A model generated the notes under the pieces. That model worked only from the letters and a program-made list of their open reading frames with translations, had not been told where the DNA came from and searched no databases. From a virus, in IMG/VR virus record IMGVR_UViG_3300045988_108579, positions 1 through 39,673 of that record: a DNA stretch of 39,673 nt. One strand, 5' to 3'. Positions 1,039-12,979 of the stretch are shown piece after piece (the first letter of the stretch is position 1; each line of letters starts with the position of its first letter). Made by a program: the position numbers and the translations under genes.

Positions 1039-1314
1039 TCAGTCAAACAAATCGCTGTGTGTGCCGGTACGGGTGAGACAGAGCGTCAGCTCGCCATGGG
1101 ATATCTCGTAGATCAGCAGCCAGTCCGGCGTGATGTGGCACTCGCGGCAGCCGATATAGTCGCCGGAGAGCGCGTGGTCGCGGTTCTTTTCCGGGAGCGG
1201 CTTTTCCTCGGCGAGAAGCTGCACAACGTTTTCCAACAGGCGCACGTCATAGCCGCGGCGGACGATGCGCTTATAGTCCCGGCGGAAGGCTGCCTGAAAC
1301 TTAATCGTCAGCAT
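1039..1314 (-). CDS. yafQ: Type II toxin, YafQ/RelE family mRNA interferase.
   Basis: 91 aa. DHALSGDYIGCRECHITPDWLLIYEI...TRTGTHSDLFD matches the YafQ pattern DHPLxGxxxGxRxxHxxPDWxLIY...RTGTHxxLF. It overlaps the upstream antitoxin gene by 14 nt. Confidence 0.85.
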   Translation of the reverse strand: MLTIKFQAAFRRDYKRIVRRGYDVRLLENVVQLLAEEKPLPEKNRDHALSGDYIGCRECHITPDWLLIYEISHGELTLCLTRTGTHSDLFD

Positions 1315-1573
1315 TGAGCGCCTCCATCAGATCCTCGACGGAATGGAACGGGCCGCTCAAGCCGATGCCGGCCTCGGCGTCCTCGATCGCCTTTCTCGTT
1401 TCGGCGTTCGGGATCTCCGCGCCGATCTCAAAGGGGATGCGGTATTCGCGGACGGCCTTTTTCGCAAAGACGGTGACGGCGGCGGTGACGGAAAGCCCCA
1501 TATCGGCACAGAACGCCTCGAACTGCTTCTTGAGCTCGCTGTCCATACGGATATTCATGACCGTGGTTGCCAT
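1301..1573 (-). CDS. dinJ: Type II antitoxin, DinJ/RelB family (ribbon-helix-helix).
   Basis: Starts at internal ATG 1573 with GGAG 8 nt upstream. MATTVMNIRMDSELKKQFEAFCADMGLSVTAAVTVFAKKAVREYRIPFEI is DinJ-like. It lies immediately upstream of yafQ. Confidence 0.8.
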   Translation of the reverse strand: MATTVMNIRMDSELKKQFEAFCADMGLSVTAAVTVFAKKAVREYRIPFEIGAEIPNAETRKAIEDAEAGIGLSGPFHSVEDLMEALNADD

Positions 1574-1604
1574 ACTATCAGCTCCTTTCAATATTTGTAT
1601 ATAC

Positions 1605-1633
1605 ATTGTATTACATAATATACACGTTGTCAA
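1605..1633 (-). promoter_or_regulatory. Sigma-A-type promoter of dinJ-yafQ.
   Basis: On the minus strand: TTGACA (1633..1628), 17-nt spacer, TACAAT (1610..1605). The spacer and flank contain the inverted repeat GTATAT...ATATAC, a candidate autoregulatory operator. Confidence 0.7.
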
Positions 1634-1636
1634 CAT

Positions 1637-1675
1637 AAAAAAGAGAACGGAGGTCAATCTCCGTTCTCTTTTTCT
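1637..1675 (-). terminator. Rho-independent terminator after the CI-like repressor. An A-run on the other side makes it potentially bidirectional.
   Basis: 11-bp stem AGAGAACGGAG/CTCCGTTCTCT with loop GTCAAT. T-runs follow on both strands. The repressor stop codon lies in the loop. Confidence 0.75.
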
Positions 1676-2058
1676 TTTTGCAGGGCGTTGTAGGATTCGT
1701 AGACATTGCAGACGAACTCAAGCGCGGCGCGGATGGCTGGTTCGGGTGTCTTGCGCAGGGCGTCGATGAACGCGAGCACCTCGGGCGAGGCGCTCTCTTT
1801 GGACAGGCCGCCGAAGAAGCGGGCGCGATCCTCATCCTCGGTGAGCTGCTCGAGCATCTCGCCGGTGCCATCGCGGAGCCAGGCTTCCCGCACATTGAAT
1901 TCGCGGCAGATCAGCGAGATCACCGCATCGGACGGGACGTTTCGACCGGATTCATAAGTGGCTACGGTGCTCTGCTTGGTTTTGGTGCGTTCGGCGAACT
2001 TCTGCTGCGTGAGGCCGTAAAAATCACGAACCTCCTTGATGCGGCTGCCAACGGACAT
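1654..2058 (-). CDS. CI-like XRE-family HTH repressor.
   Basis: The start is taken at ATG 2058, with AAGGAGG 8 nt upstream. MSVGSRIKEVRDFYGLTQQKFAERTKTKQSTVATYESGRNVPSDAVISLICREFNV is a classic XRE HTH. It is divergent from an operator-rich region. Confidence 0.85.
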   Translation of the reverse strand: MSVGSRIKEVRDFYGLTQQKFAERTKTKQSTVATYESGRNVPSDAVISLICREFNVREAWLRDGTGEMLEQLTEDEDRARFFGGLSKESASPEVLAFIDALRKTPEPAIRAALEFVCNVYESYNALQKEKENGD

Positions 2059-2081
2059 AGGCAGCACCTCCTTTCGAGGAC

Positions 2082-2836: not shown

Positions 2837-3147
2837 AAAAAATGCGAGATGAGCGCTTGCAGAAGCACGGTTACAGCGGAGGCGACAGCGGCAGAGACAA
2901 CGCTTGTACAGATCTGCTCCTGCCGGGTGCGTTTCCGAGCTTCTTCTTTCCGGATGAAAAAGACAATGCCGTCATCCGTGGGGTTCACCCACCAGCTGCC
3001 GTCTGAGCGGTCGTGCTTTTCGACGAGGCCGAGAGAAACGAGCTGAAAAAGCTCTTTTTCGGTGATCTGCGTATCATCAAACGGGACGGGGAGACCGTCC
3101 GGGGAGAGCTCGAGAAGCCCTTGCAGGTGCTTTTCGATCGGGGACAT
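2833..3147 (-). CDS. Small protein with a C-terminal TM anchor, function unknown.
   Basis: Start at ATG 3147 with an AAGGAGG RBS. 104 aa: MSPIEKHLQGLLEL...SVVSAAVASAVTVLLQALISHFF. The longer 128-aa form in the ORF track has no RBS. Confidence 0.65.
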   Translation of the reverse strand: MSPIEKHLQGLLELSPDGLPVPFDDTQITEKELFQLVSLGLVEKHDRSDGSWWVNPTDDGIVFFIRKEEARKRTRQEQICTSVVSAAVASAVTVLLQALISHFF

Positions 3148-3175
3148 AAAACATACCTCCTTTTCTGAATATTTC

Positions 3176-10440: not shown

Positions 10441-10938
10441 ATGGATTTCAAAAATGCACTCGAGGCAATGAAACACGGGGAGGCGGTGAAGCTGCCGTCG
10501 TGGGGCGGCTTCTGGCGATGGGATGCCGAGAAGCGGACCATCATCATGCACACCAAAGAAGGAAAGGAAATGGACATCCGCGAGACGCAGGTCGTGGAAT
10601 ACACGCTGCTGAACGTCCTGTCGGACGAGTGGGTGATTGCCGGGCTTGAAAACTGCCCGGCGCTCGGCGGCATAGCGCGCTTCTCCTTCAGCGAGGCGAT
10701 AAAGTATGTCAAACGCGGGATGAAAGTGCGCCGGGCCGGGTGGAACGGGCGAAATCAGCACATCGAATTGGCGGTAGACATCTGTTACTACAGCGCCACG
10801 GACGCGCAGCCGCGCAATGCGTACCATGAGGACATAGGCAGCAAGGCCATCGTGTTCTGCGGGACGCGGGGAGAGCAGATCGGCTGGCTGGCGAGTCAGG
10901 CGGACATGCTGGCGGAAGACTGGATGTTCTGCGAATGA
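10441..10938 (+). CDS. Tandem DUF2829-domain protein (Tad2-like anti-Thoeris sponge family).
   Basis: Strong RBS AAGGAGG. The C-terminal half FSEAIKYVKRGMKVRRAGWNGRNQHIEL...IGWLASQADMLAEDWMF closely matches the DUF2829 consensus (F.eAl..lk.GkkV.R.gWng...i.l ... W.asq.DlLAeDW). The N-terminal half MDFKNALEAMKHGEAVKLPSWGGFW...LLNVLSDEWVI is a second, more divergent copy. Confidence 0.75.
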   Translation: MDFKNALEAMKHGEAVKLPSWGGFWRWDAEKRTIIMHTKEGKEMDIRETQVVEYTLLNVLSDEWVIAGLENCPALGGIARFSFSEAIKYVKRGMKVRRAGWNGRNQHIELAVDICYYSATDAQPRNAYHEDIGSKAIVFCGTRGEQIGWLASQADMLAEDWMFCE

Positions 10939-11309
10939 GGTGCGAAGAGTGCGTGCATTGGCCGCCGAGCGCAATGGGTAACAAGCCCTGCTGTTTCTGC
11001 TATCCGGACACGCCGATGAACTATTTTCAAAGGAAGGAGGAACAGAAGAACATGGGAAACACGGAATTTACGGAGAAGGCAAAGAAACTCGTGCGGGAGT
11101 ACACCACGGATCACATGGACAAAGCGGACGAAACGCCGGCCTTTGAGGTGTTTGTGGTATGGAACGCTTTCATTCTCGGAAACATGAAGGCGCTTCTCTC
11201 GACGACGCTGCCGGATGGTATGTATTACGAGATCACATACAACAAGGCGAAGAACGAGATCTATCTGGACGCCTACAAGAAGTTCGAGAATATCTGCTTC
11301 GCCGTCTGA
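10935..11309 (+). CDS. Hypothetical protein. Possibly two fused units.
   Basis: ATGA-coupled start at 10935 gives a Cys-rich N-terminus (MRCEECVHW...CCFCYP). An in-frame ATG at 11052 has a very strong RBS (AAGGAAGGAGG) and would give an 85-aa protein (MGNTEFTEKAKKLV...). Confidence 0.55.
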   Translation: MRCEECVHWPPSAMGNKPCCFCYPDTPMNYFQRKEEQKNMGNTEFTEKAKKLVREYTTDHMDKADETPAFEVFVVWNAFILGNMKALLSTTLPDGMYYEITYNKAKNEIYLDAYKKFENICFAV

Positions 11310-11314
11310 AATGC

Positions 11315-11343
11315 GAAAAAAGCCCGCCGGGAGACCGGCGGGC
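11315..11343 (-). terminator. Rho-independent terminator of the reverse-oriented two-gene operon.
   Basis: 9-bp GC stem GCCCGCCGG-gaga-CCGGCGGGC. An A7 tract precedes it on the plus strand, which is a T-run on the minus strand. Confidence 0.75.
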
Positions 11344-11373
11344 GGAAGCACATTCGGCATTTCTCGCGGCGTA

Positions 11374-11556
11374 TTAACCGCATTGTGCATCATCCTTGTG
11401 TGAGAGAAAAAAAGCGATCAGCCGCACAAGGTATTCCGGCGGCTTGGAGACCTCGCTCTCCCAGTTTTCGATGCTACGTTTCGGGATTCCGAGCAGCTCG
11501 GCGAAAGCGCGCTGCGTAAGTCCGGTAGACTCACGCAGCGCCTTGATCTCACTCAT
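11374..11556 (-). CDS. Small XRE-family HTH regulator (Aca-like or antitoxin-like).
   Basis: Start at internal ATG 11556. MSEIKALRESTGLTQRAFAELLGIPKRSIENWESEVSKPPEYLVRLIAFFL. It overlaps the upstream gene by 8 nt. Confidence 0.75.
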   Translation of the reverse strand: MSEIKALRESTGLTQRAFAELLGIPKRSIENWESEVSKPPEYLVRLIAFFLSHKDDAQCG

Positions 11557-11824
11557 TGGCGGCTTCCACCTTGTTCCAGTACACCGGGCGCGGAACGTCC
11601 TTTCCCCAGTCAAAAAGAACGGAATAGAGCTCGCCGTCGTCACCGCGGCAGATCGGCGAATAACCGTCGAAAAGATCGTCGCTCAGGCTGTCGGCGTAAT
11701 TCTCGCCGCGGGTGCGGCGGATGTCGTCAAGGACGGTTTTGTCGTACTGCAACGGTGCGTCGCTCCATTTGTACCCCTTGCCTTTCAGATCAAGCTCGCG
11801 GTTGTCGATGATTTCAAATTTCAT
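11549..11824 (-). CDS. Acidic 91-aa protein of unknown function. Anti-defence or toxin candidate.
   Basis: MKFEIIDNRELDLKGKGYKWSDAPLQYDKTVLDDIRR...DDGELYSVLFDWGKDVPRPVYW. By my count it has 20 D/E against 13 K/R. It is the first gene of a promoter-operator-gene-HTH-terminator unit. Confidence 0.65.
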   Translation of the reverse strand: MKFEIIDNRELDLKGKGYKWSDAPLQYDKTVLDDIRRTRGENYADSLSDDLFDGYSPICRGDDGELYSVLFDWGKDVPRPVYWNKVEAANE

Positions 11825-11880
11825 TTTTTGTTCCTTTCCGGGGCGATGCCCCTCTGTATTTTCTGTTCCTTACGATTATT

Positions 11881-11909
11881 ATGATACCACCGAATTGGTG
11901 GTACGTCAA
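11881..11909 (-). promoter_or_regulatory. Promoter with a palindromic operator for the 11824->11374 operon.
   Basis: On the minus strand: TTGACG (11909..11904), 17 nt, TATCAT (11886..11881). The spacer holds a perfect inverted repeat TACCACC-N5-GGTGGTA (11885..11903). Confidence 0.65.
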
Positions 11910-11987
11910 GAGGAAAATCAAAATTTTTCTGTGTTTTTTGCTTTGATTTCTGCTGCCGGGGCGCGGCGGCGGAAATGAGGGCGGAAA

Positions 11988-12034
11988 GACTCCCTCCGTC
12001 AGCCTTTGGCTGACACCTCCCTCGGGGAGGGAGG
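11988..12034 (+). repeat. Double-hairpin repeat module B3.
   Basis: GACTCCCTCC, then GTCAGCC-ttt-GGCTGAC, then ACCTCCCTC-ggg-GAGGGAGG. Confidence 0.8.
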
Positions 12035-12062
12035 CAGGAGAAAAGAACGGCGATACCTATAT

Positions 12063-12086
12063 AATTCGCGTGCGCGTGCGCGAATT
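12063..12086. promoter_or_regulatory. AT-clamped alternating Py-Pu palindrome. Candidate Rep origin or nick-site hairpin.
   Basis: AATTCGCGTGCGCGTGCGCGAATT has 8-bp perfect arms (AATTCGCG/CGCGAATT) around a 16-nt uninterrupted CG/TG alternating tract. It overlaps a TATAAT hexamer (12060..12065) and lies 60 nt upstream of the HUH gene. Confidence 0.35.
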
Positions 12087-12145
12087 TTTGCGGACCTGTT
12101 AAAAGGCTATCTTTAGGACGGAGGATAAAAGGAGTGACGGCTTAC

Positions 12146-12979
12146 ATGGAGTACAAGATCATTTCGGGACCGGTGACGGAGATCCGCCGCGGCTGGATGC
12201 CGACAAAGAGAGGCGGCCAGCGCGTTCGGCGGGGAACAAAGGCGAAAAAGTCGAGTATTGAAAAAATCAAACGCAACGAGACGGACGCCATAAAGAAACT
12301 CACCCGAGTGCTCAACTGCAATTTCCGGATGGGGGATCTGTGGCTCACCCTTACTTTTCCGGGGAAGGAAGAAATAAACTGGGAGACCGCTCAAACGGCG
12401 TTCGACCGGTTCCTCCGAAAGCTCCGCGAGTCGTATCGGAAGGAACAAAGGGCGAACATCAAGTTCGTTTACTCCCAAGGCCGGAAAGATGAGGACGGAA
12501 ACGATGCCCGGCCACATTTTCATCTCGTCATGCCGGCGGCGGACTATGAGCTCGTCTGCGCTCTCTGGCCACAGGAGGCGGTGACGTACCGCCGTCTTGA
12601 CGGACGGAAGGATCATGTCAAGATTGCAGAGTATATGATACGAAACGCCAAGGGCGTACCGGGGAAAAAGAAATACCACACGAGCCGCGGGTTAGAAAAG
12701 CCTGTCTATACGGAACCGGTGCCAGTGTACATCAACAGCAAGATCGAACTCCCGAAAGACGCGATCATCTGTGAGCAGCATAAAACACGGGATTACGAAA
12801 GCGGGTTTACCTCGGAGTATGTCCGCTATATTCGACCGGAGAAGGAAAGAAAAGGCAACGGCGCGCGCGTCTCTGCGCGTTCTGTTAAAACAAATGTCAA
12901 CCGGGGCGACAATCCCTCCGGCGGCGATGCCGCCACCTCCCTTTGCACAAGGGAGGCTAAAAAGGAGGCGGGGAATTGA
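12146..12979 (+). CDS. HUH-superfamily rolling-circle Rep-like endonuclease.
   Basis: Motif I DLWLTLTF. Motif II (HUH) RPHFHLVM, with HFH at 12515..12523. Motif III Tyr region IAEYMIRNAKG. The start is ATG 12146, or GTG 12134. The last roughly 20 codons are encoded by repeat module A4. Confidence 0.65.
   Translation: MEYKIISGPVTEIRRGWMPTKRGGQRVRRGTKAKKSSIEKIKRNETDAIKKLTRVLNCNFRMGDLWLTLTFPGKEEINWETAQTAFDRFLRKLRESYRKEQRANIKFVYSQGRKDEDGNDARPHFHLVMPAADYELVCALWPQEAVTYRRLDGRKDHVKIAEYMIRNAKGVPGKKKYHTSRGLEKPVYTEPVPVYINSKIELPKDAIICEQHKTRDYESGFTSEYVRYIRPEKERKGNGARVSARSVKTNVNRGDNPSGGDAATSLCTREAKKEAGN
12908..12958 (+). repeat. Double-hairpin repeat module A4, inside the 3' end of the HUH gene.
   Basis: GACAATCCCTCC, then GGCGGC-gat-GCCGCC, then ACCTCCCTT-TGCACA-AAGGGAGGCT. 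Nearly identical to A1. Confidence 0.85.

Follow-up and report, generated by a model that had tools for sequence, protein, structure and literature searches.

A putative Aca-type, autoregulated accessory cassette with changing cargo in a temperate phage of gut Oscillospiraceae

A small two-gene unit on the minus strand of a viral genome, IMG/VR record IMGVR_UViG_3300045988_108579 (positions 1 to 39,673; this whole stretch of 39,673 nucleotides is called the window in what follows), is the subject of this report. The unit lies at positions 11,315–11,909 and encodes an acidic protein of 91 amino acids followed by a helix-turn-helix (HTH) protein of 60 amino acids. We read it, with a probability of about 60%, as a negatively autoregulated accessory cassette of the anti-CRISPR-associated (Aca) type, carried by a temperate phage of gut Oscillospiraceae and equipped with a counter-defence cargo. 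Comparison of sequences across many viral loci indicates that the HTH protein and the palindromic operator in the promoter stay together as a conserved regulatory pair while the cargo between them changes. The HTH protein and its operator represent a new regulator/operator family and the 91-residue protein a new cargo family; the kind of cassette is already known. The elements of the unit are as follows.

11904..11909, minus strand: −35 hexamer TTGACG, read from the sequence; in 54 of 119 viral loci a TTGACA/T/G box immediately precedes the palindrome.
11885..11903: operator palindrome TACCACCAATTCGGTGGTA, a perfect 7-5-7 repeat; consensus of the family TAYCACY-N5-RGTGRTA.
11881..11886, minus strand: −10 hexamer TATCAT with TG just 5′ of it, read from the sequence.
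11840..11852, minus strand: hairpin in the 5′ untranslated region, GGGGC-AUC-GCCCC, −9.3 kcal/mol.
11832..11839, minus strand: ribosome-binding site GGAAAGGA, with the ATG 7 nt downstream; GGAAAGG in loci L005, L012 and L135.
11549..11824, minus strand: cargo gene, an open reading frame (ORF) for the 91-residue acidic protein, isoelectric point (pI) 4.5, no family match.
11374..11556, minus strand: gene for the 60-residue XRE-type HTH protein, a bare HTH_3 domain of HigA2/MqsA-like subtype.
11313..11343, minus strand: intrinsic terminator, with a 9-bp all-GC stem (11343–11322), a 4-nt loop and T6.

The original prediction, made from the letters of the window, had proposed a minus-strand unit set amid plus-strand genes, with a TTGACG-17-TATCAT promoter, a palindrome in its spacer, overlapping genes and a strong terminator, and this layout is borne out. 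Both neighbours are on the plus strand, and the promoter is where it had been placed, with a 17-nt spacer and 10 of 12 consensus positions matched. The perfect TACCACC-N5-GGTGGTA palindrome occupies the whole spacer and covers the TG of the extended −10 element together with the first two −10 bases. It is the sole site of its kind in the window, even when two mismatches are allowed (0.03 expected by chance). A single promoter-like match per 1 kb is not significant alone (0.7 expected by chance); we judge the promoter and palindrome to be real because they are conserved in more than 100 other loci. The cargo and HTH genes lie on the same strand in one transcription unit with a single promoter and a single terminator, and the stop codon of the former and the start of the latter share ATGAGTGA, the two ORFs overlapping by 8 nt. 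The fold energy of the leader hairpin is not significant by itself (z = −1.6). Its stem is retained in loci L001, L005, L071 and L135, with a varied loop or a G-U pair, and at the equivalent position in L216, where the cargo is a different one, the leader has a GGCC-UCC-GGCC hairpin. Rfam holds no entry for the leader or the intergenic region. Structured leader RNAs have been reported to be bound by Aca1 and Aca2 (PMC13551039).

The association of operator and HTH protein was examined in both directions. A relative of the 91-residue protein (35% identity) in a Ruminococcus metagenome-assembled genome (L012) lies behind TTGACA-TACCACCTATTTGGTGGTA-TAATAT, and the presence of the palindrome in this promoter led us to search for the palindrome on its own. 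Among 119 viral contigs with TACCACC-N5-GGTGGTA, 54 have a TTGACA-type box directly before it and a −10-like box directly after it, where fewer than one would be expected. An HTH protein homologous to that of the window is encoded downstream in 46 of 51 such promoter instances (phmmer E-values 9e-5 to 5e-39), these 51 being the ones with at least 1 kb of downstream sequence and including the window and loci fetched earlier. For the reverse test, 80 loci were picked by HTH homology alone, 520 relatives of the HTH protein having been found in viral loci. The palindrome, with at most two mismatches, stands directly after a −35-like hexamer in 61 of them (TTGACA-type in 54), 294–1152 bp upstream of the HTH gene, and 13 further loci have the variant TATCAC(C/T)...(A/G)GTGATA in the same promoter slot, giving 74 of 80 in total. 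The operator also occupies this slot in L005 and L012. Operator variants are found in L153–L211, for example TATCACCCAATGAGTGATA; we saw no obvious co-variation between operator variants and the recognition helix of the HTH. The half-sites TATCACC/GGTGATA appear to resemble phage lambda operator half-sites (TATCACCGC), with a spacing of 19 bp versus 17 bp, and homology is not implied.

The genes between operator and HTH gene, by contrast, are exchanged. Among 86 unique cassettes there are about two dozen unrelated cargo families, counted after spurious alternative-frame ORFs had been dropped, and the majority of cargos are small with a pI of 4–5. Cargos from other cassettes gave no informative match in Pfam, PADLOC or the PDB, and in PHROGs they matched families of unknown function only. 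When PADLOC was applied to ten of them together with the 91-residue protein, nothing emerged beyond the HTH regions and one marginal Cas11a match. The largest cargo class consists of basic proteins of 106–148 amino acids, encoded by the first gene after the operator in L013, L028, L042, L092, L163, L204 and L206. They have a common N-terminus of 36 residues, MKKYNLS.IMKRAWELVKKSA.TISSGLKKAWEEAK, and entirely different C-terminal parts; from its sequence, the shared segment resembles an adaptor or targeting module, common to the class, that carries differing heads. This class had no match in Pfam, and its PHROG matches were to families of unknown function.

The 60-residue protein, which had been predicted to be of the XRE type, matches Pfam HTH_3 (PF01381) with an E-value of 6.6e-9 and 36.1 bits, above the gathering cutoff of 23. 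The alignment covers residues 4–48 and a match to HigA-2 reaches residue 54, leaving no extra domain. Members of this HTH subtype have the motif IPxR(T/S)(I/L/V)ENW, followed in most by ESG, and across the loci the HTH takes the form either of a protein of 55–60 residues or of the C-terminal domain of a protein of 112–283 residues. An HTH profile matched Aca10 (PDB 7XI5) at E 0.0035, and the single sequence matched the solved structures of Aca3 at 0.06 and of Aca1 at 0.5; all of these are weaker than the matches to Atu1735, the C protein of phage P2 and HigA-2. A tblastn search of plasmids with the HTH protein gave no Klebsiella plasmid, the source of Aca9, at E ≤ 1e-3. Judged by its sequence and setting, the protein appears Aca-like in architecture and function and of a HigA2-like XRE subtype, and it is placed in no named Aca family. 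Likeness to HigA2 does not separate an antitoxin from an Aca protein, since Aca6, Aca9 and Aca10 also have their closest resemblance to HigA2 (PMC9410906).

One relative of the HTH protein stands by itself in a cultured strain, on plasmid pRUMAL01 of Ruminococcus albus 7 (NC_014824.1 137121–137324; L223 ~2880–3175). It has 67 residues, is 53% identical to that of the window and has no cargo gene; a promoter, TTGATG-CGTCACCAAGATGGTGGTA-TAATGT, lies directly upstream, and an extra GGTGGTA half-site further upstream. Solo aca genes have been proposed to be repressors of incoming anti-CRISPR (acr) operons, and the pRUMAL01 gene resembles these.

The cargo of the window is indeed acidic and without a recognisable motif, as had been predicted: it has 20 aspartate and glutamate residues versus 13 lysine and arginine residues and finds no match in Pfam, PHROGs, NCBIfam or PADLOC. 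Neither enzymatic nor membrane features were apparent. The AlphaFold model is confident (mean predicted local distance difference test score, pLDDT, 86) and has the order beta-beta-alpha-alpha-beta-beta-beta. The suggestion that the structure might disclose a known anti-CRISPR fold came to nothing, as Foldseek found no PDB match for this model at E ≤ 0.001 and, in BFVD, matched its own family only; a family profile gave nothing significant among PDB sequences (best E 0.85). On this evidence the protein would represent a new family without a detectable fold relative. A word-indexed search yielded 57 close relatives, all metagenomic, and a profile search run exhaustively over 1.84 billion cluster representatives yielded only 74 members, which marks the family as genuine though uncommon. 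Conservation is seen in a G-Y pair near residue 17, at D49, in (Y/F)-D-G at residues 52–54 and in a C-x-G-(E/D)-D-G-x-L-Y-x-V-x-F hairpin, after which come P80 and W83. An HTH_3 domain is fused to the protein in 5 of 55 diverse members; the four inspected all carry the HTH subtype of the window, at the C-terminus in P0072, P0102 and P0113 and at the N-terminus in P0074. Viral contigs hold no relatives of another protein, P0093.

The gene for the 91-residue protein is known from at least four settings. In phages of the window type it is accompanied by the HTH gene. In L005, a different prophage, it has a 58-residue HTH partner and lies between a cluster of small genes that includes a holin and a tRNA-like end. 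In phi29-like podoviruses of about 12.5 kb (L007 and L008) it is the first gene, some 270 nt from the contig end, and no HTH gene is present; in L224, where an HTH gene is likewise absent, it is one of a series of small acidic genes. By eye, the start of the L005 contig (positions 1–50) reads like the T-arm, acceptor stem and CCA that close a tRNA at its 3′ end, which would put the cassette at the end of the prophage beside a tRNA attachment site; the cluster of small genes that lies on the other side of the cassette, the holin gene included, is on the opposite strand. The podoviruses encode a type B DNA polymerase, Phi29 SSB and the gp16 ATPase, and their version of the gene joins the 91-residue domain to a second small domain.

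L007, 267–734: podovirus fusion gene.
L008, 278–760: podovirus fusion gene.

This partner is a conserved domain of about 65 residues with the order beta-beta-beta-beta-alpha; the AlphaFold model of the fusion is of low confidence, the C-terminal domain having a pLDDT of 61. We had entertained the idea that homologs of 153–160 residues were read-through products of cargo and HTH genes, and rejected it: their C-terminal part is this different, non-HTH podovirus domain.

A plausible scheme for the working of the cassette can be drawn from these elements. Host RNA polymerase would use the near-consensus promoter to make a two-gene mRNA, from which the 91-residue cargo and the HTH protein would be translated, coupled through the ATGAGTGA overlap. 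A bound HTH dimer should exclude polymerase, because the operator overlaps the spacer, the TG of the extended −10 element and the first two −10 bases, and as cargo and HTH protein share one mRNA and are probably coupled in translation, the outcome would be negative autoregulation. HTH dimers on TACCACC-N5-GGTGGTA would thus close the promoter, giving a burst of expression and then a low steady level. It is from the co-conservation of HTH and operator that we infer repression of the HTH protein's own promoter; autorepression is established for Aca1, Aca2, Aca3 and Aca10 and presumed for every Aca family (PMC9410906, PMC9410881). The HTH protein would regulate irrespective of the accompanying cargo, and the strong terminator would keep antisense transcripts from running into the DUF6275 and Tad2-like genes, which converge on the unit. 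The 91-residue protein would be the effector and act in trans, most likely through binding and inhibition of some component of the host, for which an immune protein is the most plausible candidate.

A number of features speak for a trans-acting inhibitor of a host factor, which would most plausibly be part of the immune system: the cargo is small and acidic, with neither enzymatic nor membrane features; cargos are rapidly replaced under a cargo-independent regulator; the gene stands alone at the head of lytic podovirus genomes; the protein is fused to an HTH in some relatives; and it is encoded in a variable region with a Tad2-like gene and, in relatives, Dam and Dcm methylases. Small, acidic, fast-turnover ORFans beside a cargo-independent HTH gene are a signature used for finding anti-defence genes (PMC9410906, PMC13551039). 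A role in counter-defence may be inferred on these grounds; anti-CRISPR activity specifically is unsupported, as nothing indicates CRISPR-Cas over another target. The acr–aca layout that had been recognised in the unit therefore stands as far as its architecture is concerned, with a conserved HTH–operator pair and swapped cargo; its anti-CRISPR function finds no support, and no cargo matched a validated inhibitor.

The closest parallels are the acr–aca operons with Aca6, Aca9 or Aca10. These too consist of one or more small cargo genes followed by a gene for an HTH_3 protein of 60–70 residues that resembles the C-terminal domain of HigA2, and they share a near-consensus promoter with an inverted repeat in its core, sometimes a second copy nearby, and a constant regulator behind varying upstream genes. 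In every Aca family the core promoter contains one inverted repeat, and in some there is another copy, IR2 (PMC9410906, PMC9410881); the second operator copies of L047 and L083, full or partial and ~10–30 nt upstream of the −35 box, are comparable to it (PMC9410906). For Aca9, CACC is reported as the half-site core (PMC9410906), apparently similar to the CCACC of the present palindrome; the Aca10 operator, AATACGCTCATTGAGCGTATT (PMC9410881), differs from the palindrome of the window. In the comparisons with solved structures and plasmids no significant match by sequence put the HTH protein of the window in the Aca6, Aca9 or Aca10 family, the hosts of the known operons are Proteobacteria and not gut Clostridia, and there is no validated anti-CRISPR among the cargos here.

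Self-repressing anti-CRISPRs, with inhibitor and HTH in one polypeptide (PMC9410906, PMC10901769), offer a second comparison. Some relatives of the 91-residue protein are built likewise, with an N- or C-terminal HTH as part of the chain, as are the Acr–Aca fusions AcrIIA1, AcrIIA13–15 and AcrIF24; in the window, however, the genes are separate and overlapping, and no similarity of sequence or fold was found. The cassette also has much in common with phage morons: it forms a unit complete in itself, bounded by a promoter and a terminator of its own, is oriented against the flanking genes and occupies a slot that holds other two-gene units in sibling phages. It differs from them in that a dedicated, conserved autorepressor and operator accompany the changing cargo. 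A literature search with the string TACCACC returned nothing relevant, a 2026 survey of Aca proteins makes no mention of Clostridia, Firmicutes or a TACCACC-type motif, and the passages that a term search retrieved from the AcrIIA22 paper on clostridial hypervariable islands revealed no link.

The window represents a temperate phage of ~39 kb, of which nearly identical contigs of 38.8–39.1 kb were found. The exact sequence of its HTH protein occurs in 2454 indexed blocks of the assembly collection, and the contigs of 200–265 kb among these HTH-bearing blocks imply integrated prophages; matches in the genome collection are metagenome-assembled genomes of uncultured Oscillospiraceae. Genes of the phage to which we refer are these.

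1039–1657, minus strand: RelB/DinJ-like antitoxin and YafQ/RelE-like toxin.
1654–2067, minus strand: CI-like repressor, a 137-residue HTH protein.
10441–10938: Tad2-like gene (PF11195, 7.7e-23).
10935–11309, plus strand: DUF6275 gene, flanking the unit.
12134–12979, plus strand: Rep-like gene, flanking the unit (PF23343/phrog_3584).

The unit had been thought to lie directly after the Tad2-like gene; this is not so, as the DUF6275 gene intervenes. The region is nonetheless a variable, accessory one, with the Tad2-like gene nearby and with Dam and Dcm methylases in relatives. Sibling phages, whose Rep gene is 91–99% identical, have other opposite-strand units in the slot between DUF6275 and Rep genes (window 11310–12133). 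In L216 the slot holds another cargo with a related HTH gene and the operator variant AATCACCCAACGGGTGATA.

Several observations weigh against the reading we favour. No cargo matches a validated anti-defence protein, and not every cargo is acidic: the large basic class has a pI of ~9.3, and one cargo is a membrane peptide of 49 residues. The nearest solved relative of the HTH is the C-terminal HTH of the antitoxin HigA-2, the top NCBIfam match is the MqsA family, below the model cutoff, and Aca10, Aca3 and Aca1 are matched no better than XRE proteins in general. In L012, L076 and L078 the operator is present with no intact XRE gene downstream, which allows for regulation in trans. The cassette is co-oriented with the CI-like repressor and RelB/YafQ genes and opposite to the lytic genes; morons expressed from the prophage, often defence or fitness genes, share the orientation of the lysogeny genes. 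Finally, the slot appears to be a general hotspot for the swapping of accessory genes, since sibling phages carry differing units there, among them true or putative toxin–antitoxin (TA) pairs: a DUF4160 gene with a DUF2442-HTH_59 gene in L218–L220, and HicA/HicB in L222.

A rival reading is that the cassette is autoregulated just as proposed and that the 91-residue cargo serves another accessory function, as a host-takeover factor, as an antirepressor or modulator of lysogeny, or as a fitness or exclusion factor expressed from the lysogen. We regard this as unlikely and yet as the rival to be taken most seriously. The orientation with the lysogeny genes, the use of the slot by accessory pairs of general kinds, and the basic proteins and membrane peptide among the cargos would all be natural under it, as would the place of the 91-residue gene at the head of lytic podovirus genomes, where early first genes are often host-takeover factors. 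It accounts less well for a protein with neither membrane nor enzymatic features, for the want of any defence-family match in the PADLOC scan of 11 cargos, save for the HTH regions and the marginal Cas11a match, and for the turnover of cargo under a cargo-independent HTH that marks anti-defence genes (PMC9410906, PMC13551039).

A distinctly improbable alternative is that the 91-residue protein serves the HTH as partner or sensor domain, so that both together make up a split transcription factor in a purely regulatory unit. The N- or C-terminal fusions with HTH_3 in 5 of the 55 members of the family would suit such an arrangement; against it, the HTH serves many other upstream genes, the 91-residue domain also occurs alone, and with a single operator in the window there would be no other target to regulate.

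Hardly probable at all is a HigBA-like type II TA system, its toxin gene leading the operon, in which the 91-residue protein would be the toxin and the HTH protein antitoxin and autorepressor: gene order, overlap and palindromic operator are compatible with it, the HTH has HigA-2 and the MqsA family as its top PDB and NCBIfam matches, and HicAB fills the same slot in a sibling phage, but the acidic protein is in no toxin family in Pfam, NCBIfam or PADLOC and occurs without any HTH in podoviruses and L224, and the phage already has a RelB/YafQ pair. HigA-2 and MqsA antitoxins share with the HTH of the window the subtype motif, the second place in the operon and an expected autorepression through a palindrome. 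They carry in addition a toxin-binding domain, which the bare 60-residue HTH lacks, and are partnered by one cognate toxin family, whereas the HTH type of the window has many unrelated partners. The TA reading that the original prediction had kept as its alternative is thus disfavoured, because HTH and operator are conserved together while the genes upstream of them are exchanged among about two dozen families, a poor fit to cognate neutralisation.

If the Aca-type reading of the cassette is extended beyond the window, the HTH proteins and their TAYCACY-N5-RGTGRTA operator could form a very widespread new Aca-like family in phages of gut Clostridia, with at least 520 loci in IMG/VR, its two dozen or so cargo families being uncharacterised immune inhibitors and its solo copies, on chromosomes or on plasmids such as pRUMAL01, host-side repressors of incoming cassettes. 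We advance this broader view tentatively and would put it somewhat short of even odds. To our knowledge, phages of strictly anaerobic gut Bacillota have so far yielded few counter-defence proteins, their hosts being difficult to culture. The pattern TTGACA-TAYCACY-N5-RGTGRTA followed by an HTH gene of the IPxR(T/S)xENW type offers a sequence handle by which candidate inhibitors can be retrieved from gut viromes. The cassette of the window is a clean and highly prevalent example, with a cargo whose fold is confidently predicted and has no relative detected in these searches. If it turned out that the cargos do not inhibit immunity, the cassette would still be, to judge by its sequence, a well-defined, portable and autoregulated expression unit of gut phages.

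Two minor features may be recorded. In L012, downstream of the distant, 95-residue member of the cargo family, an excisionase-like frame of HTH_17 type (1005–1210), broken by an in-frame TAA, replaces the XRE HTH gene, and the operator is intact. In the window, GC-rich inverted repeats, nested in one another, occur before the Rep-like gene in the intergenic stretch, at 11990–12034 and 12063–12086; they are CTCCCTCC/GGAGGGAG, GTCAGCC/GGCTGAC and CCTCCCTC/GAGGGAGG, and there is also AATTCGCG/CGCGAATT. The units in the slots of the sibling phages (L218–L220 and L222) lie at about −250 to −1000 relative to the Rep gene. The repeats before the Rep-like gene could be an origin or a Rep control region.

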